From NCBI RefSeq assembly GCF_002945325.1, contig NZ_CP026606.1, forward strand, positions 930,001-962,000: 32,000 nucleotides of DNA, in the 5' to 3' direction. The position numbers were made by a program, and so were the translations under genes. Every line of letters starts with the position of its first letter. Position 1 is the stretch's first letter. This document shows positions 307 through 24,475 of the stretch, piece by piece. The notes below the pieces were generated by a model. That model ran no database searches, had not been told where the DNA came from, and saw nothing but the letters and a program-made list of their open reading frames with translations. Origin of the DNA: Methanococcus maripaludis. GTDB lineage: Archaea; AGJL01; Methanococci; Methanococcales; Methanococcaceae.

Positions 307-592
307 TTAAAGAGTGCCAATTTATTTTTGAGTAAACTATTTTTACGAGAGTGTCTTTGTGCCAAGTTACGAAGTACGGCAACTATGGACAAATATTTCA
401 AACACCGTTAACACGATATTTAACAGTATATTTCGCTTATCATACGATAAGCAACAAATATACCTTTTTTTAATATATATTGTTTTTGGCAGGACTTTTT
501 ATGTAAATCGTCTTTTTAACATTTTATAAGGTTAAATTTTAGTTAATCAAATTTATTTCTAAAAAAGTAAGTTTATTAAAAATTAAAAGGAA

Positions 593-1672
593 TTAAAATT
601 CAATATCTTCTCTTTCCATTTTCTTTTTTGAAAGTGATATTACTGGGTTTATTGATGCTTCTCCTTCAACTGAAACGTATCCGTTGATTACAGTTCTATC
701 GAAGAATCCTTTACCCCATTTGTTTCTTACTAAAACTGTGGAGTATCCTTCAGGAGTTCCAACGTTTCCAACTGAAATATCCGAAGAAATTCCTGTAAAG
801 TCCCTACAGACTTTGCATCCTTTTCTGACATATTCATCCATTTCATCAATTTTAAAATTGAATACGTTGCCATGTATTGTTGAAACTATGAGTTTTCCCT
901 TGTCAATTTCCATTTTTTTAATATCCCAAGGGTTTACTTCAACTTCTTTTAGCTTTTTGAGCATTTTATCATAGTCAAAGGTTTCAAAACAGAACAGTGA
1001 TATTTTTAACCTTATTGCCTTTTTGAAAGGTTCAACTAAATCGTTGTTTGTTGCCATCATCTGGTAAACTGCATTAATAACACAAGGTGTTCCAACAACT
1101 GCAATTTTGTTTAATTTTTTTACCATTACAGCTTCTTTTAAAACTTCGAGTATTGGGACGTTCCAGTTGTATCTACTTCCAGCAGTTTTTAAAACGTCTT
1201 CTTTCGATGTTGCAAGGTATGATTTTGGATCCATTGTCCATTTATCTTCCATCATAACAATTGCGCCGTCAATTAAGTCTTCATCGAAGGCATTTGCTAA
1301 AATTGCGGTTACAACACCACCACTTTGAATATTTTTAGTTTCGAGTGTTGATTTTGCTTTATAATTTTCAATAACTCTTCCTGGAACTTTTTCTAAATTA
1401 AAGATGTGTCTTTCTTTTGTTCTTGGACATGCATTGTAACATGCACCGCAATTTACATCGTAGAGAGTTACTTTACAGAATTCCGCTGAAATTGGAGACT
1501 CCCCATTTTCAGTTGGCACAATAATACATGCGCATTCGTCACAGTCAAACTGCACGGGACTTTGCTGTTTAAAGTATATATTTTCAGTAGGACATACAGA
1601 AACGCACGCTCCGCAACCAGAGCATGTTTCTCTATCCCATACTTCTTCTTTTAAGTTCAAGTATGACTTCAT
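593..1672 (-). CDS. FrhB-like F420-binding/[4Fe-4S] subunit with an N-terminal ferredoxin domain; putative electron-input subunit of glutamate synthase
   Basis: N-terminal Cys motifs CSGCGACVSVCP and CGACYNACP. The remainder resembles the FrhB/FdhB/FpoF family. The ATG at 1672 has AGGTGG 5 nt upstream, so I prefer it over the GTG at 1681. It lies 32 nt downstream of the GXGXG gene on the same strand. Confidence 0.85.
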   Translation of the reverse strand: MKSYLNLKEEVWDRETCSGCGACVSVCPTENIYFKQQSPVQFDCDECACIIVPTENGESPISAEFCKVTLYDVNCGACYNACPRTKERHIFNLEKVPGRVIENYKAKSTLETKNIQSGGVVTAILANAFDEDLIDGAIVMMEDKWTMDPKSYLATSKEDVLKTAGSRYNWNVPILEVLKEAVMVKKLNKIAVVGTPCVINAVYQMMATNNDLVEPFKKAIRLKISLFCFETFDYDKMLKKLKEVEVNPWDIKKMEIDKGKLIVSTIHGNVFNFKIDEMDEYVRKGCKVCRDFTGISSDISVGNVGTPEGYSTVLVRNKWGKGFFDRTVINGYVSVEGEASINPVISLSKKKMEREDIEF

Positions 1673-1704
1673 AATTTCCACCTAAATCTCTTAAAGTATT
1701 TTAA

Positions 1705-2496
1705 TTATCTCAAATCAGGTGTGTACAGTTTCTGGAATGGCCTGCTTGAAATTGGAGCGATTTTTGTATATTTTGAATTGATAAGTTTTTCTTTGATTTC
1801 GTTAGAATAACCAAATTCTGCACAGAATTCTTCGATGTATGGAGTAATTTTTTCAATGTCTTCTTCAGTAAAGTCCTTGATGTCTGCTGCAATTCCAAGT
1901 TGGGAACTTTCGACAATTCCCCTGATGTAAATTACACCGCCGTGAATTCCTGTTGCAATCATTCTTCCTTCGATATTTTCAGTATCTTCTTTATCCATGT
2001 TGAAGTTTAAAATAATTCCTCCAGCCATGTATTCCCCAAGGAAGTCTTTTGCAGCTCCACCGATAACTAAAACAGGGAATTTGTATTTGTATTCTTTCAT
2101 GTGGATTCCGCTTCTGTATCCAACATTTCCTTGAACGTAAACTTTTCCGCCTCTCATCGAGTGGCCGGTTACATCCCCACTACTTCCGTGAATTACGACA
2201 AATCCTTCATCCATTGTATTTCCCGGAGCATGGTCCGCATTTCCATTTACAACTACTTTAGGGCCTTTCATAAACATTCCGAGGTCTCCACCAGGAACTC
2301 CGTTTACGATTATCGTTAAATCTTTTCTTGAAACTCCGTTTCCAATAAATCTCTGGCCTAAAACATTTTCAAGTACTAATTTTTCCAAGTCTTTGTTTTC
2401 GTCCAAAACTTCGTGGATTTTCTCGTTTAATTCCCTGTAGTCCATGTCCTTGGCGTCAATTTTAAGTTCTTTCATTCTTTCACCTAGACTGGCCAT
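1705..2496 (-). CDS. Glutamate synthase GXGXG domain protein (GltB domain 3 / FwdC-like beta-helix)
   Basis: Repeated beta-helix turns: NGVPGGDLGMFM, HGSSGDVTGHSMRGG, QGNVGYRSG. Its ATG overlaps the upstream stop (TAATG at 2494-2498). Confidence 0.9.
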   Translation of the reverse strand: MASLGERMKELKIDAKDMDYRELNEKIHEVLDENKDLEKLVLENVLGQRFIGNGVSRKDLTIIVNGVPGGDLGMFMKGPKVVVNGNADHAPGNTMDEGFVVIHGSSGDVTGHSMRGGKVYVQGNVGYRSGIHMKEYKYKFPVLVIGGAAKDFLGEYMAGGIILNFNMDKEDTENIEGRMIATGIHGGVIYIRGIVESSQLGIAADIKDFTEEDIEKITPYIEEFCAEFGYSNEIKEKLINSKYTKIAPISSRPFQKLYTPDLR

Positions 2497-4028
2497 TACA
2501 TTCCTGCCTGTTTTATTCCTAATGTATTTAATTCAATCTCGCTGAGTCCTACGCCCCTCAATCTGTCTCTGTTTCCTCTGAGACTTTCTATAGAGTTAAT
2601 TCCTGCAGCTCCGAGTAATTCTTGGATTTCGTGAGTCCATGCGTGTATTAAATTAGCGACTCTTCTTGCAGCGTCATCTACTTCCAATCTTTTTACGAGT
2701 TCAGGTTTTTGAGTTGCAATACCCCATGCACACTGTCCCGTGTAGCATCTTCCACATACTGTACAGCCCATTGCAACCATTGCAGCGGTTCCAATGTACA
2801 CTGCATCAGCACCAAGTGCAATTGACTTGAATACATCAGCGGAGTTTCTAATACCTCCACTTGCAATGATGCTTATTTTATGCCTGTTTCCTTGCTCTCT
2901 TAATCTATCATCTACTGCTGCGATTGCAACTTCGATTGGAATACCAACGTTATCCCTAAATACTTTAGGTGCAGCACCAGTTCCACCCTTAAATCCATCG
3001 ATAACAACTGCATCTGCATCTGATGTTGCAATACCGTTTGCAATTGCTGATACATTGTGCACTGCAGAAATTTTAACAAATACTGGCATTTTCCATCTTG
3101 TAGCTTCTTTCAAACTTCTGATGAGTTGTGCAAGATCTTCAATTGAGTAGATATCGTGGTGAGGTGCTGGCGAAATTGCATCTGAACCTTGAGGAATCAT
3201 TCTCGTCATTGAAACTTCTGCTGACACTTTTTCTCCAGGTAAGTGCCCTCCGATTCCAGGTTTTGCACCTTGACCGATTTTGATTTCAATTGCAGCCCCT
3301 TTGTTTAAATATTCACTGTTTACACCAAATCTACCACTTGCAACTTGTGTGATGATGTTATCTGAATATCCATACAAATCCCTGTGAAGTCCGCCTTCAC
3401 CTGTTCCCATGAACGTTCCACATTCTTTTACAGCTTTTGCCATTGCTTTGTGGGAATTTAATGAAAGTGCACCGTATGACATGTGTCCGATCATTATTGG
3501 AGTATCTAACTTAAGATTTGGAGCAATTTTTGTTTTTAATTTTGCTTTTTTGACTTTTTTACCGTCGATTTCTTCTTCAACGTAGTCAAATTCTAATTTT
3601 TCTGGTTTTTTACCAACGTATGTTCTAAGTTCCATAGGTTCTCTTAATGGATCTATTGAAGGGTTCGTTACCTGACATGCATCAAGAACAATTTTATCGA
3701 AGTATATCGGGTACTCTTTTGCATTGCCCATACCGCTTAATAGAATACATCCTGATTTCGCCTGTGTTACAACATCCTGTTTTACTTCAGGTGTCCATAC
3801 GGGGTGTTCCCTACCGCATGATTGATTTAATGTAACGGTAATAGCATCTCTAGGGCACAGTGAAGCACATCTTAAACATGCCCCACATCTGTTAGGGTAC
3901 GTTAAAATTTTATTTCCCTGTCTTCTGTAAACGCCCCATGAACACTCAGTAGTACATCGTTCACAAAGCATGCATCTTTCCGGATCCACAAAAACTTTGT
4001 ATTTTGGCGGAACTGTTGAAGGTATCAT
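2496..4028 (-). CDS. Glutamate synthase FMN/central domain (GltB domain 2) fused to an N-terminal 2x[4Fe-4S] ferredoxin
   Basis: N-terminal CMLCERCTTEC and CGACLRCASLCP. GltB-like segments ISPAPHHDIYSIEDL, GGTGAAP, ASGGIR and GCTVCGRCYTGQCAWGIATQ. Confidence 0.92.
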   Translation of the reverse strand: MIPSTVPPKYKVFVDPERCMLCERCTTECSWGVYRRQGNKILTYPNRCGACLRCASLCPRDAITVTLNQSCGREHPVWTPEVKQDVVTQAKSGCILLSGMGNAKEYPIYFDKIVLDACQVTNPSIDPLREPMELRTYVGKKPEKLEFDYVEEEIDGKKVKKAKLKTKIAPNLKLDTPIMIGHMSYGALSLNSHKAMAKAVKECGTFMGTGEGGLHRDLYGYSDNIITQVASGRFGVNSEYLNKGAAIEIKIGQGAKPGIGGHLPGEKVSAEVSMTRMIPQGSDAISPAPHHDIYSIEDLAQLIRSLKEATRWKMPVFVKISAVHNVSAIANGIATSDADAVVIDGFKGGTGAAPKVFRDNVGIPIEVAIAAVDDRLREQGNRHKISIIASGGIRNSADVFKSIALGADAVYIGTAAMVAMGCTVCGRCYTGQCAWGIATQKPELVKRLEVDDAARRVANLIHAWTHEIQELLGAAGINSIESLRGNRDRLRGVGLSEIELNTLGIKQAGM

Positions 4029-4055
4029 CTTTTCTCACCTAATTATTAACTTAAA

Positions 4056-5147
4056 TTAAATTTTTTTCTCTAATTTTGCAATAACCATTCTTCCTGCGTC
4101 TGGCATCCATACTCGATCCAATTCAGGGCATATTTTCCTAATTGCTGATTCTTCACTTGATACAAATAACAAGTCATCTTTTTCTGCAGCAACTAATGGT
4201 CTTAATTTAATTCTGTCAGTTAAACCAACCATTGTATTTCCTTCTTCGACTTCACCATTCATGAAAGCCATTCCTTCTTGTGTTCCAACAACAATTCCGA
4301 AAGGACCGTTCATTGTTGCACCGCCATAGGTCATACGGATTGCTTCGTGTATTTTTTTATCTTCTTTGGACATACTCTCGATTTCATCCCAGAATCTTGG
4401 AGCTAATGCACTCATTGCATATTCTACAGGGATTTTGTGTTTCCTGATGAGTAAATCGAAGAGATATGCAACAACTTCTGTGTCGGTTAAAAGTTTACAT
4501 TTGTATCCAAAACTTTCAACGTATCTTTTGTTTGCACCGTAGCTTGTAATTTCTCCGTTGTGAACTACAGACCATCCTAACAGGTTGAATGGGTGCGCAC
4601 CTCCCCACCATCCTTTCGTGTTTGTAGGGTATCTTGCATGTGAAAGCCATTGGAAACCTTTGTACTGGTCAATTTTAAAGTATTCTGCAACTTCTAAAGG
4701 CCATGCAGCGGCTTTAAATACGCCCATATTTTTACCGCTTGAAAATACAAATGCTCCGTCGATTTTAGCGTTGATATCCATTACGATATCCACCATCATG
4801 TCTTCTTCGACTGATTTGTATTTTTCATCAAACCTGTAGAAAAATCTCCACGAAACCTGTTCTTTTTTGATAATTCCTTCTTCTGTTGGAATTTCTTCAT
4901 CTTTTAAGATGTATCCGTATTTTACAAGAACTTCTTCGACTTCGTGTCTAATTTTATCGTAATCTTTGGTTGCATCTAAAAAAACGTGTATTGCATAGTC
5001 ATCTTTATAGTCTGGGTAGATTCCATATCCTACATAACCTGAACCTTCACCATTTCCTCTTTCCTTTAAACAATTCAAGGCTGTAGCAATCCTGTCTCCA
5101 CTGATAAGTCTTCCAGTTCTACTCATAAATCCGATAATTCCGCACAT
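4056..5147 (-). CDS. Glutamate synthase glutamine amidotransferase domain (class II / Ntn type, GltB domain 1)
   Basis: Begins MCGIIGF, with the catalytic Cys directly after the initiator Met. It is the first gene of the co-directional cluster, with a 27-nt gap to the next gene. Confidence 0.92.
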
Positions 5148-5293
5148 GATAAGCCTCCAACTTTAGGTTATCCTATTATGAAAAAAGTCATTTATATACA
5201 TTATTGAATATAAAAGAGCCAATATACTCTGAAAAATTATTTTTTATAGGTTAATCCAAGTATTTATTCAATTATTTTAAAAAATATAAAAAA

Positions 5294-5911
5294 TTATTTT
5301 TTAATATCAACAACACCAGTTCTAAACAAGTGTTCTATACTAACGCCTTCGATTTCATCGATTCCACTTTTATCCATTACCACGAATACTTTTTTAGGGT
5401 TAGCAATACCTTTTAAGTATTTTATTGTTTCTTTTACAGAATTTCCAGATGTCATTACATCATCAACAATAATAACGTCCTTTCCAACAATACTGGACAT
5501 GTTTTGACCGATAAATCCTGTTGTTTTCTCTTTTTCAGTATGGATGTGTTTTTTTGGAACATATATAGAGAAATTTTTATCAAGTTCATCCGAAATCAGC
5601 GTTGCAAGAGGAACCCCGCCTGAAGAAATTCCGACAACACCGTCAAATTCAACATCTGAAAGCATGTCGCAGATTATTTTTGAAATATTTCTAAGCCTTC
5701 TTGATGAAGCCCGAACGTTGTCCCATTCTAAAAAGATATCCAACTTTTCAGAATCCTCTTTAGGACTTTCTTCAGCCTTTAAAAGTTCTTCACCATTTAG
5801 TGTAAGATATAATGCCGTTTTAACTGATATGTTTAGTTCTTCTGCAATATCCCCACTTGGAAAACCCATATCCCTTAATTTTAAAGCCTTAAGTATGAGT
5901 TCTTTTTTCAT
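5294..5911 (-). CDS. Orotate phosphoribosyltransferase-like protein with an N-terminal HTH (PyrE2-like / GfcR-type putative regulator)
   Basis: N-terminal HTH-like segment [21 protein letters not shown]-binding loop [13 protein letters not shown]. 205 aa. Confidence 0.8.
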
Positions 5912-6105: not shown

Positions 6106-6951
6106 ATGAACAAAAATGAAATAGCTAATCTGAAAATGCAAGGTTTTATCCTTCAAAACGATGGAAAACATTTTGCATTAAGAATAAAAACCGATGCAGG
6201 ATGCATGGATTCAGAAAAAATTGACAAATTGTCAGAAATATCAAAAAAATACGGTAGAAATTATATTAGTTTCACCGTCAGGCTTTGTGTAGAAATTCCT
6301 TGGATAAACTACGAAGATATACCTAAAATAAAAGAAGAACTTAAAAATTCAAGCCTGATATCCGGTGGAACTGGAAACACTGTAAGGCCCCTTGTCGCTT
6401 GTAAGGGAACTGTTTGCACTCACGGACTTATTGACAGTCAAAAGATTTGTAACGAACTTGATTCATTATTTTTTGGAAAAAAATTACCGCATAAATTTAA
6501 GATAGGAATTTCAGGATGTCCAAATAACTGTGCAAAAGCGCAGTTAAACGATGTAGGAATTATTGGACAGAGAATACCAAAAATAAATGAAGAAAACTGT
6601 AATGGATGCACACTGTGCTTAAAATCCTGCAGTGTCGATGCAATCACAATCGTTGATAAAAAAGCAGTTATAGATTATGAAAAGTGCGTTAACTGCGGAA
6701 AATGCGGGGAATCGTGCAAAAGAAAATGTATTTCTTTAAAAGATGGTGTATTGATATCCGTTGGCGGAAAATTCGGTAAAAAATATAAAATTGGCGAAAA
6801 TATAGGAATATACGATGCTCCAAATCTTGAAAAGATAGTTTCTGAGATTATGGATTATTTCGAGGAAAATGCAGATTCTCATGAAAGATTTGGCGATACA
6901 ATCGATAGAACGGGAATTAGTTCTTTAAAAGAAAAATTAAAAGGTTATTAA
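6106..6951 (+). CDS. Small nitrite/sulfite reductase-like (Dsr-like) siroheme protein with an inserted 2x[4Fe-4S] ferredoxin domain
   Basis: Motifs ACKGTVCTHG ... GCPNNCAKA (siroheme/[4Fe-4S]-type). Inserted CNGCTLCLKSCS and CVNCGKCGESC. 281 aa. Confidence 0.75.
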   Translation: MNKNEIANLKMQGFILQNDGKHFALRIKTDAGCMDSEKIDKLSEISKKYGRNYISFTVRLCVEIPWINYEDIPKIKEELKNSSLISGGTGNTVRPLVACKGTVCTHGLIDSQKICNELDSLFFGKKLPHKFKIGISGCPNNCAKAQLNDVGIIGQRIPKINEENCNGCTLCLKSCSVDAITIVDKKAVIDYEKCVNCGKCGESCKRKCISLKDGVLISVGGKFGKKYKIGENIGIYDAPNLEKIVSEIMDYFEENADSHERFGDTIDRTGISSLKEKLKGY

Positions 6952-7697: not shown

Positions 7698-7843
7698 TTA
7701 ACCACCGATAAATCGTTTTTAAAATTTAAAACGTATTTAATATTAAGTTCTCAAATAATGAACTCAGATACTTATATATACTATCAAAAGCAGTGTAATA
7801 TTGCATCAATATAAGAGATGTATATAATACTAGGTGAATAAAT

Positions 7844-8053
7844 ATGGCTTTCGGTAAACCCGCAATGAAAAATGTTCCTGTTGAAGCAGGAAAAGAATAT
7901 GAAGTAACAATTGAAGACATGGGTAAAGGTGGAGACGGAATCGCTAGAATCGATGGATTCGTTGTTTTCGTACCTAACGCAGAAAAAGGTAGCGTTATTA
8001 ACGTTAAAGTTACCGCTGTAAAAGAAAAATTCGCTTTCGCAGAAAGAGTATAA
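7844..8053 (+). CDS. Stand-alone TRAM domain protein (small RNA-binding, chaperone-like)
   Basis: 69 aa. GDGIARIDGFVVFVPNAEKGSVINVKV is typical of single-domain archaeal TRAM proteins. AGGTGA RBS 7 nt upstream. Confidence 0.85.
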   Translation: MAFGKPAMKNVPVEAGKEYEVTIEDMGKGGDGIARIDGFVVFVPNAEKGSVINVKVTAVKEKFAFAERV

Positions 8054-8113
8054 GTGTTTCACGTCTTCCCTTAATACCTGTGGGCTTTTATCGGAAACCC
8101 CAGTAGTTAAGCA

Positions 8114-9091
8114 GTGATAAAGATGATCGAATCACTCATTCGATTCTTTTATTTTTTTATTAGTCTAGTTATATACTGGATCAATTTAATCCGTGCATTT
8201 AATCTGGAACTTATTGAAAAACGTACTCTTGACATTATTTTTGTTTTCAACTTATCAGTACTTTTCTTTTCGATATATTTTATGTCTGATGTAAATTATG
8301 TTTTTGGACTTTCTGTTTATGCTGCTTCTTTTTTGAGCGTTTTACTGATTAGAAATCAGGTCTTTTTTGAAAAATTTACAAAACTTTTAAAAATGGATCT
8401 TTCGTTTGACAATCCGATTCATAAGATTTCACTTTCGCTTTCTACATACATTTTATTAAATCCAATAATCGCTTTTGCATCGGGAGCAGGTCTTATAATC
8501 ATCCTTTCTGACTTTTTAGAAATATTAGATATTGCCGCATTTCAGCTTATAATTTTAGTCTACGCATTTGTTGGAATAGGCTTTGGAACGAGAAAAAACT
8601 TAAAACAGTCTATTAAAAGGCTTGATATAAAACGTCCATCCTTAAAATACGCAATTTTTGGAGTAATCCTTCTATTAATGGTTGATAAATTTATATGGGG
8701 ACTTTTTGACTTTTTTATATATGTCTTCCAGTCAATGGATCCGGCAATTTCAGAACATATTGCAGAACAGGCTGTTGTTGAAAATTCAAATGTCAATGAA
8801 GTTGTAAGTACAATAAAAACTTCAGCATCTACGCCATTAAAAATAGTATTTTTATCAATAATAGTTGGAATAAGCGAAGAAGTAATGTTTAGAGGGGCGT
8901 TACAGCCGAGATTTGGAAACATTTATACAAGCTTACTTTTTGCAAGTCTTCACGCCCAGTATCTATCATCAATGGTACTTTTAGATGTATTTATAATAAG
9001 CTATATCCTTGGAATGATAAAAGAGAGGAAATCTACATCCACTACAATATTAATTCATATATTTTACGATATTTTATCATTAATCTTTTGA
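8114..9091 (+). CDS. CPBP family intramembrane metalloprotease (CAAX-protease-like)
   Basis: Multi-pass hydrophobic protein. CPBP motifs SEEVMFRG (EExxxR), FASLH (FxxxH) and HIFYD (HxxxD). The start is either the GTG at 8114 or the ATG at 8123. Confidence 0.75.
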   Translation: MIKMIESLIRFFYFFISLVIYWINLIRAFNLELIEKRTLDIIFVFNLSVLFFSIYFMSDVNYVFGLSVYAASFLSVLLIRNQVFFEKFTKLLKMDLSFDNPIHKISLSLSTYILLNPIIAFASGAGLIIILSDFLEILDIAAFQLIILVYAFVGIGFGTRKNLKQSIKRLDIKRPSLKYAIFGVILLLMVDKFIWGLFDFFIYVFQSMDPAISEHIAEQAVVENSNVNEVVSTIKTSASTPLKIVFLSIIVGISEEVMFRGALQPRFGNIYTSLLFASLHAQYLSSMVLLDVFIISYILGMIKERKSTSTTILIHIFYDILSLIF

Positions 9092-9436
9092 TTCTGACCT
9101 TAAACAGTCGTAAAACCACGGTTCTTCATAAGATTCATAATTTTTAACATAAGGGCAGTCTTTTGGAAGTGCAGAAACCATTATAGCTTCGAGCATTGAA
9201 AGGCACTTTTTTTCTTTTTTAAACCGGTTTTTATAAATTTTACAGCGTTTTGTTTCAGTATCAAGGTGGTTGCAGTATACAACTTCAGGTTCACTGCATT
9301 CGGTTGAATTAAAAACGTGGATTATACAGCACCTTCCGCACTGCTCGCAGAGATCGTCGGGAAACATTTCCGAACTTAATTTTATTATTTTTTCTTTTTC
9401 ATACTTTATTGTACCTTTTGAAGTAAAAATGTTCAT
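9080..9436 (-). CDS. YkgJ-type cysteine-cluster (CxxCxxCC) protein
   Basis: CEQCGRCC motif plus additional Cys residues. Its 3' end overlaps the convergent CPBP gene by 12 nt. Confidence 0.7.
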   Translation of the reverse strand: MNIFTSKGTIKYEKEKIIKLSSEMFPDDLCEQCGRCCIIHVFNSTECSEPEVVYCNHLDTETKRCKIYKNRFKKEKKCLSMLEAIMVSALPKDCPYVKNYESYEEPWFYDCLRSESKD

Positions 9437-9505
9437 AATATCACGTGGAAATTTAAAATAAATTTTTAAAAGGGGAAATATTAAAAAAAATAATTAAAAA
9501 AGTAA

Positions 9506-10699
9506 TTATTTTCTTGTTAATCCTTCATAGATTGCTGCTTGGAGACCGTGGAATTTAACCATTCCAACAATTTCTCTCTGGTCCATTTCTTTGTTTTCGA
9601 ATGAAACCATTTCTTCGTTGTAGATTGCATCTTTGCTTTCTCTTCCAGCGATTCTCATTGAACCTTTGTAGAGTTTTAAAACTACTTTTCCGTTCATTCT
9701 TGTTTGTGTTTTATCAATAAAAGCATCCAAATCGAGTCTTAATGGTTCGTGCCAGAGTCCTTTGTATACCAAATCTGCGTATTTTGCGTCAACCATTTCT
9801 TTGAATACGAGTTCTTCTCTTGTTAAAACGAGCTGTTCAAGAGCTTTGTGTGCAGTTATTAAAAGCATTGCACCGGGGCATTCATAGTTTTCTCTTGATT
9901 TTAGACCTAAAACTCTATCCTCAACAATATCTACTCTTCCAACCCCATTTCTTCCTGCAATTTCGTTTGCTTTTCTTATTAATGAAACTGCTTCCAATGA
10001 ATCCCCGTTGATTGCTACAGGAACTCCTTCTTCAAATTCGATTTCTACGTATTCTTCTTTGTCTTGCGCATCTGTTGGGTCAACAGTCCATGCAAAACAT
10101 TCTTTTGGAGTTTCGGTCATAGGGTCTTCTAAAATTCCGCCCTCAATACTTCTTCCCCATAAGTTTTCATCGATACTGAATGGTTTTTCTAAGTCTACTG
10201 GAACTGGAATACCTTTTTCTTTTGCATATGCTATTTCTTCAGTTCTTGTAAGGTTTAAATCTCTGATTGGTGCTACAATTTCAATTTCAGGTGTTTTTGC
10301 CCTCATTACTGATTCAAATCTGAACTGGTCGTTTCCTTTTCCAGTGCATCCGTGTGAAATTGCGCTTGCTCCAACTTCTTGTGCAAGTTCTGCAATTTTT
10401 ATAGCAATTAAAGGTCTTGCAAGAGCGGTTGATAATGGGTATCCTTCGTAAAGTGCATTTGCTTTAATAGCTCTGAAAATGTAATCTTTTGCAAATTCTT
10501 CTTTTGCATCGATTGTGTAGTGTTTTAATACGCCGAATTTTTTTGCTTTTTCTTCTGGTTCTTTTAAATCGTCTTCAGGCTGGCCTACATCAACTGCTAC
10601 TGAAATTACTTTGTAGTCGTATTTGTCTTCGAGTAATTTTAAACAGCAGCTCGTGTCAAGCCCTCCAGAATATGCCAAAACTGCAATTTTTTCTTGCAT
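9506..10699 (-). CDS. argG: Argininosuccinate synthase
   Basis: [12 protein letters not shown]-pyrophosphatase motif and a full-length ArgG-like sequence. The ATG at 10699 has AGGTGA 5 nt upstream, so I prefer it over the GTG at 10708. Confidence 0.95.
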
Positions 10700-10831
10700 G
10701 ATTATCACCTGTGTTTTATTTTTCCGTTCTATTTTTGATGTAAATAAATTGTAATCTAAAATTTATTCAATATATTATCTAAATAGTTATAAACTTTATT
10801 GTAAAAAAATGTGAAAATAAAATTTGAGTTA

Positions 10832-11812
10832 TTAAAGTTCATTTTTAAGAAGTTCTGCAACTGCAAAACTAGGTGTTGCAAGGGAAACGTCTTTTCCATA
10901 CCTTTCTGCAACAGAAATTACTTCAAAATCCGCTAATGCATCTTTTAAAATATTTTCTCCAAGTCCTGTTATTACAACTTTTTTGGAACCGTATTTTTCT
11001 GCCACATTTTCCACGTTTTCTAAAATTAACTCTTTCCATAATTCATAATAATTTTTTGCGATATTTTCTGCATCAATTTCTGAAATCTGATTCAAATCTG
11101 AGCATAAAACTTTTGAAATTCTAACTAAACTGCTTCTTTTATCTGTTCCTTTGCCGTCAGGTGTATCGCATGTGTATTCTTCAGTTGTTACTTTTTCCAA
11201 AACTACCGAAATATCCGCAGTTATTGCAAAATATTCTGAAGAAACGTTTGTATCTACGCCTTTAAACGATATCGTGTTTCCAAGATGTGAAATTGGGGTT
11301 CTGAGCGTTCCAACATACAACAATTCATGATTCATGAGTCTTTCAAGGTCTGTTTTTTCTGCAACCACTTTTCCCTCCACGATAGGGATAATGTCAGTTG
11401 TTGTTGAACCCATATCTACTAAAATACAGTTTTCTTCGATATTTTTTGAAACCCATTTTGCAGTTCCGCACCAGTTTGATGCAGAAACTTTCATGTAATT
11501 TGTTTTTGCGCTCTCAAGAGAAATAAAATTTCCATTACTATCAAAAACGGATATATTACTACCAAAAGCAGATTCTGCGGCATTTAATATATTATCTACG
11601 CCTTCTTTTTTTGTTTCATAAGAATCTGCAAGTTCTGCGGTCGTAACAAGTGCTACATGCGATACATCGTTTGAATACGTCTTTAAAACTTCTGCTAATT
11701 TATCGTTATTCTTCCACATTGGAAAATAAAGGTGGTGAACCTTAAATTCACCGTTTTCGTGAAGTTCTGTTATTTTTGTATTTGCTCCGCCAATATCTAT
11801 TCCCAAAATCAT
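10832..11812 (-). CDS. Hydantoinase/ASKHA-fold ATPase-like protein of the H4MPT-linked C1-transfer-associated family
   Basis: N-terminus ILGIDIGGANTK (ASKHA phosphate-1 motif). The family assignment comes from my recollection of the methanogen/methylotroph-restricted family. The ATG at 11812 has GGTG upstream. Confidence 0.6.
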   Translation of the reverse strand: MILGIDIGGANTKITELHENGEFKVHHLYFPMWKNNDKLAEVLKTYSNDVSHVALVTTAELADSYETKKEGVDNILNAAESAFGSNISVFDSNGNFISLESAKTNYMKVSASNWCGTAKWVSKNIEENCILVDMGSTTTDIIPIVEGKVVAEKTDLERLMNHELLYVGTLRTPISHLGNTISFKGVDTNVSSEYFAITADISVVLEKVTTEEYTCDTPDGKGTDKRSSLVRISKVLCSDLNQISEIDAENIAKNYYELWKELILENVENVAEKYGSKKVVITGLGENILKDALADFEVISVAERYGKDVSLATPSFAVAELLKNEL

Positions 11813-11926
11813 TTTCACACCATAGTTAAATAAAAATAAAAAATCATTTTTAAAAGATAAGTTTAATTATAGATAATCACAATATTATTTAAAGTTAATT
11901 TGGTTAATTAAGCGTTATGTGAAATT

Positions 11927-13000
11927 ATGAACGACAATCCTGCCACAAATAAGGTTTTTAAAGAAGTTTCGAGCCTATATAAACAATACTTTGAATATGC
12001 CATACTTGTTCGAAAATGGCTTGAAATTCCTGATGATTTAAGTCATAGGGAAATTGGCTACGGGATGTTAAAAAAAGTAGACAATAGAAATATGTCTTTT
12101 AACACAGAAAGAGACTATTTAGCTTGGGTTTTAAAAGAATCCCCATTTCACTTGTATAAATCACTTTCTTACATGGAATACCCAGATATTGTTGGGGGCG
12201 CTGCAAAAAAAGGTCTGTTTAAAAGAGAAGTTGCATTTGATATTGATACGCATAAAACAGAAAAGTGTACTCATGACGATTCATGGATATGCGAAGAGTG
12301 TTTGGGTGAAGCTAGAAATCAGGTTTTAATTTTAATTGAAGATTTTTTATTTCCTGATTTTGGACTCGACAAAAAAGATTTAAAAATAGTATTTACTGGA
12401 AACCGAGGCTACCACATATATCTAAAACCCGAAGACCCCGAATTGCTTAAAAGAATAGAAAAATGGGGAAAAAACGAAAGAAGATACTTTATTGAATATA
12501 TTTTGGGAAAAAATCTAAATTTAAGGAATATGGGAAGTCGGTGGAAAAATATACTGATAAGAGAATTTAATAAAAACAAGATTGCAACAAAAAAGTTTGA
12601 AAAAACTTCAGACTGGAAAACTGAAATCGATAATAGGAAAGACAATACAAGGCGGAAAATATACGAAACGATCGATAAAGTAAAAAGCAGGCTTGAACTC
12701 GACGAAAAAGTTATGGATGATGATATCCGGCTTCTTAGAACCATTGGATCACTTCACGGGTACACTGGACTTATGGTAAAAGAAATAACTTATAATTCAT
12801 TGAAAAATAACCAGTTCGATCCATTAAATCATGGCGTATTTGCCAAATTCCATAAAAAAATGTACAATGTAAAAATAAAACAGGAACTTGATCCTTTAAC
12901 ACTAAAAGGAGATACTTTTGACCACAATTCAACAGAAATTCCTGCAAGCTATTTATTATTCCTCTTTGGACACGGTATCGACTTTGAAATCTTAGAATAA
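11927..13000 (+). CDS. priS: DNA primase small (catalytic) subunit
   Basis: Catalytic acidic motif VAFDIDT, GNRGYHIY, and a Cys-rich insert CTHDDSWICEEC. Confidence 0.9.
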   Translation: MNDNPATNKVFKEVSSLYKQYFEYAILVRKWLEIPDDLSHREIGYGMLKKVDNRNMSFNTERDYLAWVLKESPFHLYKSLSYMEYPDIVGGAAKKGLFKREVAFDIDTHKTEKCTHDDSWICEECLGEARNQVLILIEDFLFPDFGLDKKDLKIVFTGNRGYHIYLKPEDPELLKRIEKWGKNERRYFIEYILGKNLNLRNMGSRWKNILIREFNKNKIATKKFEKTSDWKTEIDNRKDNTRRKIYETIDKVKSRLELDEKVMDDDIRLLRTIGSLHGYTGLMVKEITYNSLKNNQFDPLNHGVFAKFHKKMYNVKIKQELDPLTLKGDTFDHNSTEIPASYLLFLFGHGIDFEILE

Positions 13001-13067
13001 TTTTTATTTTTTTAAAAAATTAAAATAGTATATCTAAATTTATAAATTAATTTGCCTAAAATAAAAA

Positions 13068-13143
13068 TGGTAGCCCAGCGCGGATTCGAACCGCGGTCCC
13101 ATGCTCCAAAGGCACGGATGATTGGCCACTACACTACTGGGCT
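13068..13143 (-). tRNA. tRNA-Gln (anticodon UUG), with CCA encoded
   Basis: The reverse complement AGCCCAGTAGTGTAGTGGCC...CGTGC-CTTTGGA-GCATG...GCGGTTCGAATCCGC-GCTGGGCT-A-CCA folds as a cloverleaf. Anticodon loop is CUUUGGA. Confidence 0.9.
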
Positions 13144-13179
13144 TCTTTAATAGTTGCACTAATTAGATTGGAATTACGG

Positions 13180-13187
13180 TATATAAA
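13180..13187 (-). promoter_or_regulatory. TATA box (TTTATATA on the minus strand) upstream of tRNA-Gln
   Basis: Consensus archaeal TATA octamer, 37 nt upstream of the tRNA 5' end. Confidence 0.5.
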
Positions 13188-13351
13188 GTTTTCGGTAAAA
13201 TTCATTCTTTTAAAAGCGTTTGAAATATTGATTAAATAGAGATATTCGGATTAATTCTAAAAATAGACTTTATTAATGAGTTAAATAATTTCAAAAAATT
13301 GGATTTAATTTTATAAAAAAATTAATAAAAAATATGAACAATACCAAAAAG

Positions 13352-13520: not shown

Positions 13521-14459
13521 TTAAAATTTTACAAACTCCCCGAAAAATCCATTTTTAGAAAGTAGTTCTTTATCTTTTGAATTTAACGACTGTTTTTTTA
13601 AAGGAGGGATTGCCGAACCATCCTTCGCATAAATTACCCCTTTTTTCTTTTTTGAGCCTAAAAATTTACCTGCATTTCCATCAATAATTATTGTTCCAGA
13701 TATCATGTCAGAAGCAGTGAAATCTCCTGTGTTTCCAGTTATAATTACAGTTCCACCTCTTAACACTGATCCAGTATTTTTTCCAGCATTTCCATTAACC
13801 AAAACAGTTCCATTCTTCATTAAAATTCCTGTGCTCAAATCCACATTTCCATTTACAGTGATTTTTGATCCATTTTCAAGTCTGGCACCAATCGTGTCTC
13901 TAATTACATTATCATTTAAAATTAATTCGTTGTTCTTAAAAACGTTTGGTTTTAAAACTTTTTCTTGTGAATTAGATTCCATTAATTCAGTGATTGAAAT
14001 ATATTTTTTATATCCTGAAATATCGCTTTCAACTTCAATTATATTTCCAATGGGCTCTTTTAAGCTAAATTTTTCGTTTAAATAAACAGTTCCAGAAACC
14101 ATGCTTATCCCAAATCTCGTGTCAATGTTTCCATCAACAATAACAGTACCGGTTTGAATTTTACCTCCCGATCCTCCAAAATACTTTAAATCGGCACCCA
14201 TCGAACTGCAAAACCGGTGTCCCACATCCCCCTTAATATAAACTACATTTTCAGGATTTTTTATGTGGTTTACTAATTTTTCGTAAGATATTCCACCAGA
14301 TACATCACCTTTGATGTCAAAATTACTCTGCCATATAAAGTTGTAAGTAAAATCAAGAATACAATCTTTAGAATCATTTAATATAAGTTCCAGTACATTT
14401 TTATCGTTTAAATAGTCCTCGACTGCCTTTTTTTTCTTTTTAAATATTCCAAAGACCAT
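13521..14459 (-). CDS. Orphan GXGXG-motif beta-helix protein (FwdC / GltB-domain-3-like), function unknown
   Basis: Repeats such as [46 protein letters not shown] and [20 protein letters not shown] upstream. Confidence 0.7.
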
Positions 14460-15071: not shown

Positions 15072-16307
15072 TTAGTTTTCTTTAGGGTATGCAGGAAGTT
15101 TGTGGATTGAAATATCAAGCCCTGCTTTTTCTTCAGATTCTTTAACTCTTAAACCGCCAGTAACTGCTCCAACAAGTTTTCCGAGAATAAATCCTGCACC
15201 AGTTCCATAAACTGCACAAATTAATGTTGCAATTATCTGTTCGGTAAGGCTGACCCCACCAACACCGCCAAATGCAGTCATTCCAAATATCCCTGCCAAA
15301 ATTGCACCAAGTGCTCCAGATGTTGCGTGTACAGGAATTACACCACATACATCGTCCAATCCCAATTTTTCAACAATTTTAAATATTAATGGTACCTGGG
15401 ATCCTGCGATAAATCCAATTATTAAAGCTCCAAGCGGGCTTACAATATCAGTTCCTGCACAAATTGCAACAGTTCCTGCTAAAAGACCGTTTGCAGTATA
15501 TAACACATCGTTTTTAGAGAATAAACATCCTCCAAGACCCCCACCTGCCATTGCAAGCGTTGTTGTTGCACATACTAATCCTGAAATATCACTCAATGCA
15601 AGTGAACTTCCAACGTTAAATCCGTACCATCCAAATGCAAGAATGTATGCACCTAGAATCGACATTGGGATGTTGTGTCCCGGAATTGTTATTGCTTTTT
15701 TATTTACGAATCTACCAACTCTTGGACCGATTGCTGCAATTAAACCAAGTGCTAAAAATCCGCCAACACCGTGAACCATTAAACTTCCTGCATAGTCGTG
15801 GAATGGAATTACTCCTGCACCCCACGGCCCAAGATAACTAAAGAATGGGTACAACAAAGCCGTTATAACGATTGAAATTAAAATATATGATTTAAATTTA
15901 ATTCTCTCTGCAATTCCTCCTGCAACAATAGTTGCCGCAGTTGCCGCAAATACGAGTCCTAAAAACCAGTTTGCAAGTTCCAGCCCATTGTTTGAAAGGA
16001 ATGGAGTTGCACTTGCAATTTTTCCCCACCAAATAAAGAAATCTGCAGGGTTTAATGTTCTAGCAATTACTGAACCGACTAAAAGCCAAGAAATACATCC
16101 AATGATCCAGTCGCCCATGTTCTTCATCATTGCATTGTTTACGTTCTTTTCTCGAACCTGACCGCCTTCAAGCATTGCAAATCCAAGGTGCATTATGAAG
16201 ATAAAAGCACCAGTAAAAATTAAAAACATTACATCGCTTGAGTTTGCAAGCGTATTTAACGCATCCATAATATTTGTAGGGTTATTGAATAAATCTGCCG
16301 TCACCAT
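15072..16307 (-). CDS. amt: Ammonium transporter (Amt family), paralog 1
   Basis: 11-TM Amt-like sequence (GGQVREKNVNNAMMKN, HGVGGFLALG, VHATSGALG). 28 nt downstream of a PII gene. Confidence 0.95.
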   Translation of the reverse strand: MVTADLFNNPTNIMDALNTLANSSDVMFLIFTGAFIFIMHLGFAMLEGGQVREKNVNNAMMKNMGDWIIGCISWLLVGSVIARTLNPADFFIWWGKIASATPFLSNNGLELANWFLGLVFAATAATIVAGGIAERIKFKSYILISIVITALLYPFFSYLGPWGAGVIPFHDYAGSLMVHGVGGFLALGLIAAIGPRVGRFVNKKAITIPGHNIPMSILGAYILAFGWYGFNVGSSLALSDISGLVCATTTLAMAGGGLGGCLFSKNDVLYTANGLLAGTVAICAGTDIVSPLGALIIGFIAGSQVPLIFKIVEKLGLDDVCGVIPVHATSGALGAILAGIFGMTAFGGVGGVSLTEQIIATLICAVYGTGAGFILGKLVGAVTGGLRVKESEEKAGLDISIHKLPAYPKEN

Positions 16308-16335
16308 ATTTACGCACCATTAAAATTTAATAATA

Positions 16336-16728
<393 letters not shown>

Positions 16729-16765
16729 TTAAGGAAAACCCATACCTTGAAAAATGTATGATATA

Positions 16766-16785
16766 GGAACCGGAATTCTTATTCT
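16766..16785. promoter_or_regulatory. Two overlapping imperfect NrpR-type operators (GGAA-N6-TTCT twice) in GGAACCGGAATTCTTATTCT
   Basis: Read directly. The site lies 17 nt downstream (on the minus strand) of a TTTATATC box at 16803-10 and about 90-110 nt upstream of the PII ATG at 16674. Confidence 0.55.
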
Positions 16786-16802
16786 TACTTAAAAATAAAA
16801 CT

Positions 16803-16810
16803 GATATAAA
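16803..16810 (-). promoter_or_regulatory. TATA box (TTTATATC on the minus strand) for the PII-amt unit
   Basis: Reverse complement of gatataaa. Position is relative to the operator and the ATG. Confidence 0.5.
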
Positions 16811-16873
16811 TATTCCTATCAAAATAGATAAATTTGAATATTTGAAAAAAAGAATAAAAAATATTTTTAGAAG

Positions 16874-17290
<417 letters not shown>

Positions 17291-17315
17291 TCAATAAAAA
17301 AAAGTAAAAAATTAA

Positions 17316-18542
17316 TTATTCGTCAGGGTAAGCTGGCAATTTGTGTTCTGCAAGATCGAGACCCATTTTTTCTTCTTCTTCAGTAACTCTGAGTCCACCT
17401 GTGAATCCACCAACTAATTTTCCAAGACCGAATCCTAATCCTGTACCGTATACTACTGTTAATCCTGCTGCAATAAGCTGGTTTACCAAACTTACTCCAC
17501 CAGCACCACCAAGAGCAACCATTCCAAAGACACCTGTTAAGACACCTCCTAAAATACCTGCTGTACCGTGTACTGGAATTACACCACATACGTCATCCAA
17601 TCCCATTTTTTCAACGATTTTGTAGACGATTGGTACCTGAATTCCTGCAACAAGCCCGATAATTAATGCTCCTATTGGGCTTACAACATCCGTTCCTGAA
17701 CAGATTGCAACTAAACCTGCCACAATACCGTTTGCTGTGAATAATACATCATCTTTTGACGCTAGGAGTGCTCCAATACCTCCACCTGCCATTGCAAGTG
17801 TTGTTGTTGCACATACTAATCCAGAAATATCTGCAACTGCAAATGAACTTCCTACGTTAAATCCGTACCATCCGATTGCAAGAACAAATGCCCCGAATAC
17901 TGACATTGGGATATTGTGTCCTGGAATTGAAATTGCTTTTTTGTTAACGAATTTTCCAATCCTAGGTCCAAGAGCCGCAATTGCTCCAAGTGCTAAGAAA
18001 CCACCTAGACCGTGTACAACGAAACTTCCAGCGTAATCGTTGAATGGAATCATTCCTGAACCCCAAGGTCCAAGGTACACAAACAGCGGGTATAGTATCG
18101 CAGTTATGATTATTGACATTAATAAGTATGATTTAAATTTAATCCTTTCTGCAACACCACCTGATACAATTGTAGCTGCAGTTGCTGCGAATACCAGTCC
18201 AAAGAACCAGTTTGCTAAGTCTATTCCATTATTTGCAAAGTTTGTTGTAAATATTTGTCCCCACCAGCTGAAGAAGTCCGCAGGAACAAGTGAAACTGAA
18301 AGAACACCACCTATGAAAAGCCATGAAACTGCTCCAATTAACCAGTCTGCCATGTTTTTCATCATTACGTTGTTAACATTTTTCTTTCTGACCTGACCGC
18401 CTTCGAGAAGTGCAAATCCTAACTGCATTGCAAACACAAGTACTCCCATTAATACTAAGAACATTACATCTCCAGAAGTTGCCAATGTACTGAGCCCTGT
18501 TACGATGTTTGTGGGGTCAGCAAATAAATCTGCCGTTGCCAT
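17316..18542 (-). CDS. amt: Ammonium transporter (Amt family), paralog 2
   Basis: Highly similar to the 15072-16307 product. The ATG at 18542 (MATADLF, parallel to MVTADLF of paralog 1) has AGGTGA 5 nt upstream, so I prefer it over the GTG at 18551. Confidence 0.95.
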   Translation of the reverse strand: MATADLFADPTNIVTGLSTLATSGDVMFLVLMGVLVFAMQLGFALLEGGQVRKKNVNNVMMKNMADWLIGAVSWLFIGGVLSVSLVPADFFSWWGQIFTTNFANNGIDLANWFFGLVFAATAATIVSGGVAERIKFKSYLLMSIIITAILYPLFVYLGPWGSGMIPFNDYAGSFVVHGLGGFLALGAIAALGPRIGKFVNKKAISIPGHNIPMSVFGAFVLAIGWYGFNVGSSFAVADISGLVCATTTLAMAGGGIGALLASKDDVLFTANGIVAGLVAICSGTDVVSPIGALIIGLVAGIQVPIVYKIVEKMGLDDVCGVIPVHGTAGILGGVLTGVFGMVALGGAGGVSLVNQLIAAGLTVVYGTGLGFGLGKLVGGFTGGLRVTEEEEKMGLDLAEHKLPAYPDE

Positions 18543-18568
18543 AATTTTCACCTGATTTTATTTTTAAT

Positions 18569-18907
<339 letters not shown>

Positions 18908-19132: not shown

Positions 19133-19152
19133 GGAACCGGAATTCCTTTTCC
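19133..19152. promoter_or_regulatory. Two overlapping perfect NrpR-type operators (GGAA-N6-TTCC at 19133-19146 and 19139-19152) in GGAACCGGAATTCCTTTTCC
   Basis: Read directly. The site lies 25 nt downstream (on the minus strand) of a TTTATATA box at 19178-19185. Confidence 0.65.
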
Positions 19153-22091: not shown

Positions 22092-23066
<975 letters not shown>

Positions 23067-23217: not shown

Positions 23218-23283
23218 ATTAGCTATACTCAATTTTATATACGAAAAAGCCCAATTGGAACTTAGAAATTATCCGGTGATTTG

Positions 23284-24360
23284 ATGGATTTAATGTCCTT
23301 TAAAGAAAGAGAAATCTCAAAAAAAGACTGCGTTGAATTATTTGAAGATACAGAAAACTTTTTTGATATCTTAAAACTTGCAGATTCCATTAGAAAAGAT
23401 ATTGTCGGGGATACGGTTACTTTTGTAAAAAACACAAATATCGAAACCACAAACGTCTGTACCATGGGATGTAAATTCTGTGCATTCAGCGTTTCAAAAA
23501 ACAGCCCCGAAGCTTTCAAATTGGATGCGGATGAGATTGCTAAAAAAGCAGTTATTGCTAAAAAATCAGGACTTACAGAAGTTACAATCCACGGCGGAAT
23601 TCACCCTGATGTCGATACACACTTCCAAGTTGAAACAATAAATAAAGTAAACAGCGCAACTTCGAAACTCGGTGGAATATATACCCACGCATACTCCCCA
23701 CAGGAAATATTAAATGGCGCCGAAAATGCAGGACTTAGTATAAACGAAGCCTTAAAAATGTTAAATGAAGCAGGTTTAAGAACAATTCCTGGAACTGCTG
23801 CTGAAATACTCGATGATGAAGTAAGATCTGACATCTGTCCTTTGAAAATGTCTACTAAAAAATGGATAGATATCATGAAAACTGCGCATAAAACCGGAAT
23901 TAAAACAACTTCTACAATAATCTACGGTCATGTTGAAGAATACAAACATATTGTAGATCATTTATCAATCTTAAAAGAAATCCAGAAAGAAACCGGCGGT
24001 ATTACAGAATTTATTCCAATGTCATTTTTACATGAAAATACGCCCCTTTACAAATCCGGAAGAGTTACAGACGGTGCATCTGGACTTTATGAGTTAAAAC
24101 TCTATGCAATTGCTAGAATTTTATTTAAGGAAACTATCAAAAATATTCAGGCACCAAGAGTAAAAATTGGAACGAAATTGAGTCAGTTAATTTTAAAATC
24201 CGGTGCAAACGATCTTGGTGGAACTTTAGTAGAAGATAAAGTTTCAAAAGCTGCAGGAAGTATCTATGAAGATGCAAGCGTAGATTTAATGAGAAATGCA
24301 ATTACAAGCATTGGAAGAATTCCAAAAGAAAGAACAACACTTTATGAAATAATTGAATAA
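23284..24360 (+). CDS. cofH: FO synthase subunit CofH-like radical SAM protein, paralog 1 (the more divergent copy)
   Basis: Radical SAM motif CTMGCKFC. Conserved PGTAAEILDDEVR and YGHVE segments. The start is the ATG at 23284 (or 23293), after GGTGAT. Confidence 0.85.
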   Translation: MDLMSFKEREISKKDCVELFEDTENFFDILKLADSIRKDIVGDTVTFVKNTNIETTNVCTMGCKFCAFSVSKNSPEAFKLDADEIAKKAVIAKKSGLTEVTIHGGIHPDVDTHFQVETINKVNSATSKLGGIYTHAYSPQEILNGAENAGLSINEALKMLNEAGLRTIPGTAAEILDDEVRSDICPLKMSTKKWIDIMKTAHKTGIKTTSTIIYGHVEEYKHIVDHLSILKEIQKETGGITEFIPMSFLHENTPLYKSGRVTDGASGLYELKLYAIARILFKETIKNIQAPRVKIGTKLSQLILKSGANDLGGTLVEDKVSKAAGSIYEDASVDLMRNAITSIGRIPKERTTLYEIIE

Positions 24361-24475
24361 AATCCCTATTTTCCGTTTTTTAATGATTTAGTCCTGAATT
24401 AGCAGTTAATATCATCGAAATATTTAAATATTAAAAAATAGTCTTGAAGATATTTATAGATCGATTGGTGATTTG

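Follow-up and report, generated by a model that had tools for sequence, protein, structure and literature searches.

A conserved four-gene split glutamate synthase operon of Methanococcus maripaludis with a putative F420H2-oxidizing FrhB-like subunit

A stretch of 32,000 nucleotides of Methanococcus maripaludis DNA (contig NZ_CP026606.1, positions 930,001 to 962,000 of the forward strand), which we call the window, was analysed with attention to a glutamate synthase (GOGAT) locus that probably encodes an F420H2-dependent enzyme. The locus runs from 5147 to 593 and is composed of four open reading frames (ORFs), all of which are co-directional on the minus strand (Table 1). Genes 1 and 2 are separated by 27 nt (4055..4029), the stop codon of gene 2 overlaps the start codon of gene 3 by 1 nt in TAATG at 2496, and the spacer between genes 3 and 4 is 32 nt when the ATG at 1672 is taken as the start of gene 4, or 23 nt when the GTG at 1681 is taken. 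Automatic ORF calling extended gene 4 to this alternative GTG (362 aa versus 359 aa). However, the ATG is the better start, because the homologous proteins of all Methanococcales begin with MKSY. An earlier reading of the window (the initial annotation) had described four co-directional genes with junctions of 27, -1 and 32 nt and had chosen the same ATG; the ORF list and our reading of the sequence agree with the former, and the MKSY N-terminus favours the latter.

Table 1. Positions of the four genes of the glutamate synthase locus and of candidate transcription signals around them.
Feature	Position in window	Strand	Description
Gene 1	4056..5147	-	Class-II (N-terminal nucleophile, Ntn) glutamine amidotransferase subunit, 363 aa
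Gene 2	2496..4028	-	FMN / 2-oxoglutarate subunit, Fer4 + Glu_synthase, 510 aa
Gene 3	1705..2496	-	GXGXG beta-helix subunit, equivalent of GltB C-terminal domain, 263 aa
Gene 4	593..1672	-	Predicted FrhB-family F420H2-oxidase-like subunit, FGltS(I)-alpha type, 359 aa
Candidate archaeal promoter	5193..5214	-	TATA-like TTTATATT at 5214-5207 and TGTATATA at 5200-5193; pattern match only
Candidate terminator	561..582	-	T5 at 582-578 and T6 at 566-561; pattern only

Purine-rich, Shine-Dalgarno-like motifs (GGAGG, GGTGA, AGGA or AGGTGG) lie 5-9 nt before each of the four start codons. On the coding strand from 5283 to 507, the only TTTATATA-like matches with at most one mismatch are the two TATA-like boxes, which are located 46-67 nt upstream of the ATG of gene 1. 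The two oligo-T runs lie 11-32 nt past the stop codon of gene 4, and in a scan of the coding strand none of the three internal junctions had a stretch of at least five T. The boxes, the T runs and the gene spacing are consistent with a single transcription unit. A scan for sigma-70 promoters and intrinsic terminators, which is not applicable to archaea, gave counts at the level of shuffled sequences. The products of genes 2 and 4 are each 99% identical to Methanococcus maripaludis proteins, and the operon probably corresponds to MMP0080-MMP0083, with gene 4 as MMP0083 (MMP_RS00475), because of gene counting from the nearby gene for Dsr-LP, MMP0078. A literature look-up by the locus tags MMP0079-0083 found no papers, and MMP_RS00455-00475 have no entries in the supplement of a 2024 transposon sequencing preprint on M. 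maripaludis.

Domains were assigned with Pfam and NCBIfam profiles. There is no single large subunit of about 1500 aa; the domains of bacterial GltB are split over three genes, and with the profile NF008730, whose cut-off is 1047, the flavin mononucleotide (FMN) subunit reaches 272 bits. The gene 1 product has a GATase_2 domain (4e-9) and starts with MCGIIG, in which the nucleophile Cys stands right after Met1; the motif HNGEIT is at residue 196. The gene 2 product covers the Glu_synthase profile PF01645 in full (2e-150, 501 bits), and its TIM barrel aligns to about residues 860-1180 (856-1179 of GltB) of the solved large subunits of NADPH- and ferredoxin-dependent enzymes (7MFM, 2VDC and 1LLW) with E of about 1e-60. 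At its N-terminus is a ferredoxin domain (Fer4) of the 2x[4Fe-4S] type with C19/22/25/29 and C48/51/54/58. The sole match to the central-domain profile PF04898 in the FMN subunit is weak and lies inside the barrel (residues 356-486). The gene 3 product is a GXGXG protein (PF01493, 1e-30). The UniRef cluster names still read 'Archaeal glutamate synthase [NADPH]'.

The FMN subunit contains the motif C422-x2-C425-x2-C428-x4-C433 (window 2730-2765, minus strand), whereas characterised glutamate synthases have C-x5-C-x4-C. C422, C428 and C433 match the three Cys residues of the [3Fe-4S] cluster of bacterial GltB. The motif with the extra C425 is present in 28 of 28 methanogen orthologues examined and in bacterial split forms as well. 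The conservation of this fourth Cys suggests that a [4Fe-4S] cluster may be present across the whole class of split-type FMN subunits.

The gene 4 product is composed of a Fer4 domain, FrhB_FdhB_N (4e-22) and FrhB_FdhB_C (6e-44), the latter two above the gathering score. The ferredoxin domain has the invariant residues C17/20/23/27 and C66/75/78/82, and this is the Fsr-N architecture of FGltS(I)-alpha. The ligands of the core [4Fe-4S] cluster in FrhB of M. marburgensis, Cys104/134/192/195 (eLife 2013), map to C197/C228/C286/C289, which are invariant in all 15 aligned sequences. In the helix motif that binds flavin adenine dinucleotide (FAD), QSGGVVTA at 116, the residues Q116, G118, G119, V121 and A123 are invariant, and so are G165, S166 and Y168 of the FAD loop GSRY at 165, whose positions are as in the eLife description of the Lys/Arg-Tyr loop of FrhB. 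The loop that would lie near F420, DISVGNVG at 298, is kept in shape (Ser209-Val210 is the FrhB equivalent). The architecture given in the initial annotation, which is an Ntn amidotransferase, a ferredoxin-fused FMN domain, a GXGXG domain and an FrhB protein with an N-terminal Fe-S domain, was thus borne out by Pfam matches far beyond chance. A separate observation concerns the ferredoxin domain of the gene 4 product, which in Methanococcales only has an insertion of about 18 residues (residues ~38-59, window 1495-1560, minus strand) with the motif C44-x2-C47-x-C49; just two of these Cys are found in M. voltae, and the insertion is absent from Methanomicrobiales and Methanosarcinales.

The FrhB-like protein was modelled with AlphaFold2 from the 15-sequence alignment. 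The model had a pLDDT of 84.8 and a pTM of 0.86, with low confidence (about 60) only around residues 31-60, where the Methanococcales insertion is located. The PDB chains that matched the model best over the full length were 8RIU_B and 8RJA_E (TM 0.80-0.83, E of about 1e-28), and FrhB and Fsr came next. 8RJA_E was also the top match by sequence (1e-41, residues 2-350). Against the FrhB chains 6QGR_B and 9R51_B, Foldseek gave TM values of 0.81-0.85, normalised to target length.

Conservation of the locus was analysed by scanning one genome per species with an alignment of 15 homologues. This gave at least 67 loci, which were searched with the window proteins and in which genes were re-called. 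Counts and distributions of loci given from here on hold among the matches listed. A relative of the FrhB-like protein with at least 38% identity was present at no fewer than 33 loci, one of which begins inside the gene and is uninformative. At all of the 32 informative loci the GXGXG gene is located directly upstream on the same strand, and the full order of GATase, ferredoxin-FMN, GXGXG and FrhB-like genes is found on all 27 contigs that are long enough. In all complete syntenic loci the gene 1 orthologues are 43-72% identical. The syntenic loci span Methanococcales, Methanomicrobiales and Methanosarcinales and include Methanothermococcus, Methanocaldococcus, several families of Methanomicrobiales, Methanosarcina, Methanolobus and Methanomethylovorans. 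Orthologues of the FrhB-like protein were found in methanogens of these three orders only, and a protein search with the FMN subunit returned close orthologues only, from the same orders. In the re-called genes, the junction between the GXGXG and FrhB-like genes is typically -10, -4, +3 or +6 nt and often overlapping; junctions this short read as a signature of translational coupling. As negative controls, 13 full-length relatives with 22-35% identity were taken from Bathyarchaeia, Thorarchaeota, Syntrophoarchaeum, Methanophagales, Acidimicrobiales and other groups. No glutamate synthase neighbour was found for 12 of them within the DNA available for each locus, and the thirteenth (L039) adjoins a Dsr-like gene, which is the Fsr arrangement. 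A Methanomassiliicoccaceae contig (L067) was also considered as evidence on the electron donor and set aside as uninformative, since it carries a different GltS-like trio. Its genes (7800-13300) are in the order FMN, GATase-like and GXGXG-like (27-40% identity), with no FrhB-like gene and with a gene for a FAD_binding_4/Fe-S protein upstream; the trio is possibly a different enzyme.

In bacterial GOGAT the electron donor module is GltD. Among the four operon products and 30 further ORFs of the window, Pfam scans found no GltD-type (Fer4_20/Pyr_redox_2) protein, in accordance with the initial annotation, which had noted the lack of such a subunit in the window. Genome-wide, a 2024 preprint on random-barcode transposon sequencing (RB-TnSeq) agrees with this, as it states that no counterpart to the small subunit of bacteria has been identified in M. 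maripaludis. A fusion (Rosetta-stone) search, in which the GXGXG and FrhB-like sequences were concatenated as the query, turned up many bacterial proteins, 720-757 aa long, that combine GXGXG and a GltD-like module of the NAD(P)H type in one chain. The bacterial contigs encode a GATase (351 aa), a ferredoxin-FMN protein (508 aa) and GXGXG::GltD (724 aa), and in the split FMN subunits both the 8-Cys ferredoxin domain and the 4-Cys motif are as in methanogens. In two of them (L069 and L070) a gene for type III glutamine synthetase (GS) comes after GXGXG::GltD. The split enzymes of Spirochaetota and Deltaproteobacteria (L069-L072; P0188-P0209) therefore share the core and the gene order with the M. 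maripaludis operon, and their donor module likewise stands right after GXGXG. However, the bacterial donor is a GltD-like module (Fer4_20 + Pyr_redox_2) that is covalently fused, whereas the methanogen has a separate FrhB-like protein. From these sequence comparisons, the split core is common to bacteria and methanogens, and the slot after GXGXG is that of a putative electron-input module, GltD in the former and FrhB-like in the latter. Since GltD occupies this slot in bacteria, it is the strongest new argument that gene 4 encodes the donor subunit. In P0188 and P0196 the GltD-like module ends in a 2x[4Fe-4S] ferredoxin domain of its own. One apparent fusion of GXGXG and FrhB-like sequences, P0121 (552 aa; L068 2169-3827, a Methanoregula-like metagenome contig), is most likely a frameshift artefact and was not counted because both halves are garbled at the C-terminal end and it is found on one contig only. 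A P-II gene follows P0121 on L068.

The idea of an F420-dependent GOGAT is already known; it entered the literature on methanogens in 2011-2012. Susanti and Mukhopadhyay 2012 (PMC3448663) defined FGltS(I), whose alpha subunit is a homologue of Fsr-N (FrhB with two N-terminal [4Fe-4S] clusters) in a glutamate synthase context, gave the reaction Gln + 2-oxoglutarate + F420H2 -> 2 Glu + F420, and also defined FGltS(II). Strains of M. maripaludis were within their data set, and the operon described here is the same thing as FGltS(I) with no substantive difference. The same assignment was made by Kaster 2011 (PMC3087415), who stated that it 'remains to be proven'. The protein is included in the FrhB family alignment of Mills et al. 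2013 (PMC3591093), and a clade of FrhB was labelled FGltS by Chadwick et al. 2022 (PMC9012536). The FGltS(II) protein, 'subunit 4' of Methanothermobacter (MTH193 / MTBMA_c06440), differs in belonging to another FrhB clade and in being, by the account of PMC3591093, a circular permutation of FrhB. The wording of the initial annotation, proposed from genomics and not characterised biochemically, matches the literature from 2011 to July 2026 exactly. What is added here is the junction statistics, the comparison with the GltD slot of bacteria, the conserved fourth Cys, the Cys-rich insertion of Methanococcales and the structural match to 8RIU/8RJA.

Taken together with this literature, the four genes probably encode one soluble GOGAT made of separate polypeptides, whose reductant would be F420H2 instead of NAD(P)H or free ferredoxin. 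This was the interpretation offered in the initial annotation; it gains in silico support from the conserved four-gene synteny and from the presence of GltD in the same slot of bacteria, and we continue to treat it as a proposal. In the mechanism we envisage, F420H2 would bind the FrhB-like subunit and deliver a hydride to FAD, as the family membership and conserved motifs of the protein suggest. By the order seen in Frh, Fsr and 8RIU, single electrons would pass from the core [4Fe-4S] cluster of the FrhB fold to the two [4Fe-4S] clusters of the N-terminal ferredoxin domain, which probably also anchors the subunit. If the two subunits are in contact, the electrons would next enter the FMN subunit, where they would pass the two [4Fe-4S] clusters of its ferredoxin domain and the C422..C433 cluster before arriving at FMN. 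The relay drawn in the initial annotation is plausible in outline; however, it omitted two clusters, those of the FrhB core (C197/C228/C286/C289) and of the FMN domain (C422/C425/C428/C433). By homology to the known GltS mechanism, the amidotransferase subunit would hydrolyse glutamine at its N-terminal Cys, the ammonia would reach 2-oxoglutarate at the FMN subunit, and FMNH2 would reduce the 2-iminoglutarate so formed. The GXGXG subunit would play the structural role of the C-terminal beta-helix of GltB. The net conversion would be the one written by Susanti and Mukhopadhyay, in which glutamine, 2-oxoglutarate and F420H2 yield two glutamates and F420.

Several known systems come close to this scheme. 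Bacterial GltBD (Azospirillum 2VDC/6S6S, Bacillus 7MFM) has the same chemistry, domain set and logic, from donor flavoprotein through Fe-S clusters to FMN. The M. maripaludis enzyme differs from it in its separate polypeptides, in having no central domain, in the additional 2x[4Fe-4S] on the FMN subunit and in the fourth Cys, and GltD (FAD/NADPH) is replaced by an unrelated flavoprotein of the FrhB fold. The N-terminal half of Fsr (7NP8, 7NPA) has the same ferredoxin and FrhB architecture, and its electrons go from F420H2 to FAD, through a [4Fe-4S] relay and to the catalytic module; however, in Fsr the ferredoxin and FrhB part forms one chain with a siroheme sulfite reductase, whereas the FrhB-like protein of M. 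maripaludis is free-standing beside the GltS genes. Free-standing subunits with ferredoxin and F420-reductase domains that dock on a host enzyme are likewise found in the F420-reducing carbon monoxide dehydrogenase (CODH) and formylmethanofuran dehydrogenase of Ca. Ethanoperedens (8RIU_B, 8RJA_E). The preprint on 8RIU describes the CODH subunit as anchored on its host via the ferredoxin domain. The host enzymes are different, and electrons run toward F420 there, while they are proposed to come from F420H2 here; by analogy, 8RIU and 8RJA are the solved precedent for the plug-in role proposed for the FrhB-like subunit.

Several points, some of them taken up with the rival explanations below, weigh against an F420H2-dependent GOGAT. 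Co-transcription of the four genes was inferred from their spacing alone. The gene 4 product is below the NCBIfam equivalog cut-offs for FrhB (TIGR03289, 180.8 against 331.5) and for FpoF (NF040616, 152.8 against 475), and by these scores it is a distinct subfamily, neither the hydrogenase FrhB nor FpoF. No solved archaeal split glutamate synthase was found in the copy of the PDB that was searched, and the literature holds no biochemical or structural demonstration of the F420-dependent enzyme. The Wagner group called FGltS 'putative' in 2022, 2024 and July 2026. The 2024 RB-TnSeq preprint on M. maripaludis is silent on the fourth gene while it lists the three core genes as essential.

The core may be a three-protein, ferredoxin-dependent GOGAT, in which case the FrhB-like protein would be a separate, co-transcribed enzyme, such as an oxidoreductase that keeps the F420 and ferredoxin pools in balance. 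The 2x[4Fe-4S] domain of the FMN subunit could itself take electrons from soluble ferredoxin, and the search with the concatenated query found no genuine GXGXG::FrhB-like fusion that would tie the protein physically to the core. Soluble FpoF of Methanosarcina reportedly acts as a ferredoxin:F420 oxidoreductase. However, strict and often overlapping adjacency to GXGXG at 32 of 32 loci is unexpected for a general redox balancer, and in bacteria with the same core this slot is filled by a GltD module fused to GXGXG. Methanosarcina, moreover, has the gene alongside FpoF, and the protein misses the cut-off of the FpoF model. We regard this explanation as unlikely. It is still less probable that the FrhB-like protein does belong to the enzyme as its fourth subunit but has a flavin site for something other than F420. 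It would then serve another donor or acceptor, in the way of fold members from the chlorophyll pathway, or have a regulatory or redox-sensing role. Plant HCAR (5DQR), which we take to be ferredoxin-dependent, has the same fold at 17% identity in the Foldseek results, so the FrhB fold alone is no proof of F420 use. In addition, at the position of the Ser in the F420-contacting Ser-Val loop of FrhB, Methanococcales have Asn (N303) and the other orders have Ser or Ala, and the Cys-rich insertion C44-x2-C47-x-C49 is restricted to Methanococcales. On the other hand, the closest relatives in sequence and structure (8RJA_E, 8RIU_B, FrhB and Fsr; 28-33% identity, E down to 1e-41) are all F420-dependent, and F420 (about -340 to -380 mV) is near the potential of NAD(P)H, the bacterial donor. 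Methanogens of the three orders to which the orthologues are confined are rich in F420, and this distribution also speaks for its use.

Another explanation is that the core is not a GOGAT but some other amidotransferase/FMN enzyme akin to it, such as one of the N-methylglutamate synthase type, and that the FrhB-like protein feeds some other reduction. Split GltB-like trios of other function exist, the Methanomassiliicoccaceae contig L067 has an FMN-GATase-GXGXG trio without FrhB, and the window contains a second ORF with a GXGXG domain (13521-14459). We consider this very unlikely, since the catalytic Cys1, HNGEIT, the PF01645 match at 2e-150 and the conserved cluster Cys residues fit a redox-active GltS. 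The three core genes are also essential in M. maripaludis and are treated as its GOGAT (2024 RB-TnSeq preprint), and genes for nitrogen metabolism are near (amt and P-II, and type III GS in bacteria). The idea that the FrhB-like protein and the Dsr-LP encoded nearby are a split Fsr is hardly credible. It is true that Fsr is an Fsr-N module (ferredoxin and FrhB) fused to a Dsr-LP module and that both halves are present in the window. However, the Dsr-LP gene is on the opposite strand with five genes between, and in no syntenic locus does a Dsr-LP adjoin the orthologue. M. maripaludis S2 is sulfite-sensitive and is the sole Methanococcus with Dsr-LP (PMC3448663), yet M. voltae has an orthologue of the FrhB-like protein. 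The split Fsr was rejected on this synteny and phyletic pattern.

We return to the F420H2-dependent GOGAT as the preferred explanation. GS and GOGAT are the route of ammonium into biomass in these methanogens. If the proposal is true, F420H2 would be the fourth donor class of glutamate synthases after NADPH, NADH and ferredoxin, and nitrogen assimilation would be tied directly to the H2/F420 pool of methanogenesis. It would also be a clean case in which the electron-input module is swapped, GltD versus FrhB-like, on an unchanged catalytic core. The locus is a well-defined and genetically tractable test case in M. maripaludis. Going beyond the published idea, we tentatively suggest, as a possibility that is rather doubtful at present, that a [4Fe-4S] cluster stands in place of the [3Fe-4S] cluster of all characterised glutamate synthases, so that six clusters would link F420H2/FAD to FMN, and that C44-x2-C47-x-C49 forms an extra site, for a metal or for redox sensing, through which nitrogen assimilation is adjusted to the cellular redox state.

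Other nitrogen genes are located in the window. A cluster of three P-II genes and two ammonium transporter genes (15072-18907, minus strand, in the order P-II, Amt, P-II, P-II, Amt) is about 10 kb from the operon. At 12 loci of Methanomicrobiales, genes for amt and P-II are located 2-4 kb upstream. No NrpR operator (GGAA-N6-TTCC) was found upstream of the glutamate synthase operon, which fits the report that the GOGAT transcript level is unchanged in M. thermolithotrophicus under diazotrophy. The only matches to this pattern in the window are two overlapping ones at 19133-19152, about 230 nt upstream of the first gene of the P-II/amt cluster; the count is not above chance.

Upstream of the operon by 146 nt and on the same strand is a gene (5294-5911) for a 205-aa protein with a phosphoribosyltransferase domain and an extra N-terminal region of about 60 residues; it was not found beside the operon in other loci. 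The Dsr-LP gene, MMP0078 (6106-6951, plus strand), encodes a 281-aa small sulfite/nitrite reductase-like protein, NIR_SIR with an inserted ferredoxin domain. It is not conserved beside the operon elsewhere, and within the genus Methanococcus it was reported in M. maripaludis S2 only (PMC3448663). The second GXGXG ORF (minus strand) encodes a 312-aa protein whose GXGXG domain scores 2e-11 and which is 27-30% identical to the GXGXG subunits of other loci. This protein is perhaps FwdC-like, or else a further paralogue of GltB domain 3. The window also contains genes related to F420. A Mer-like, luciferase-like oxidoreductase is encoded at 22092-23054. It is followed by tandem radical-SAM genes (23281-24360 and 24473-25555) with CofH/MqnC C-terminal regions, and this pair looks like the F0 synthase pair CofG/CofH.

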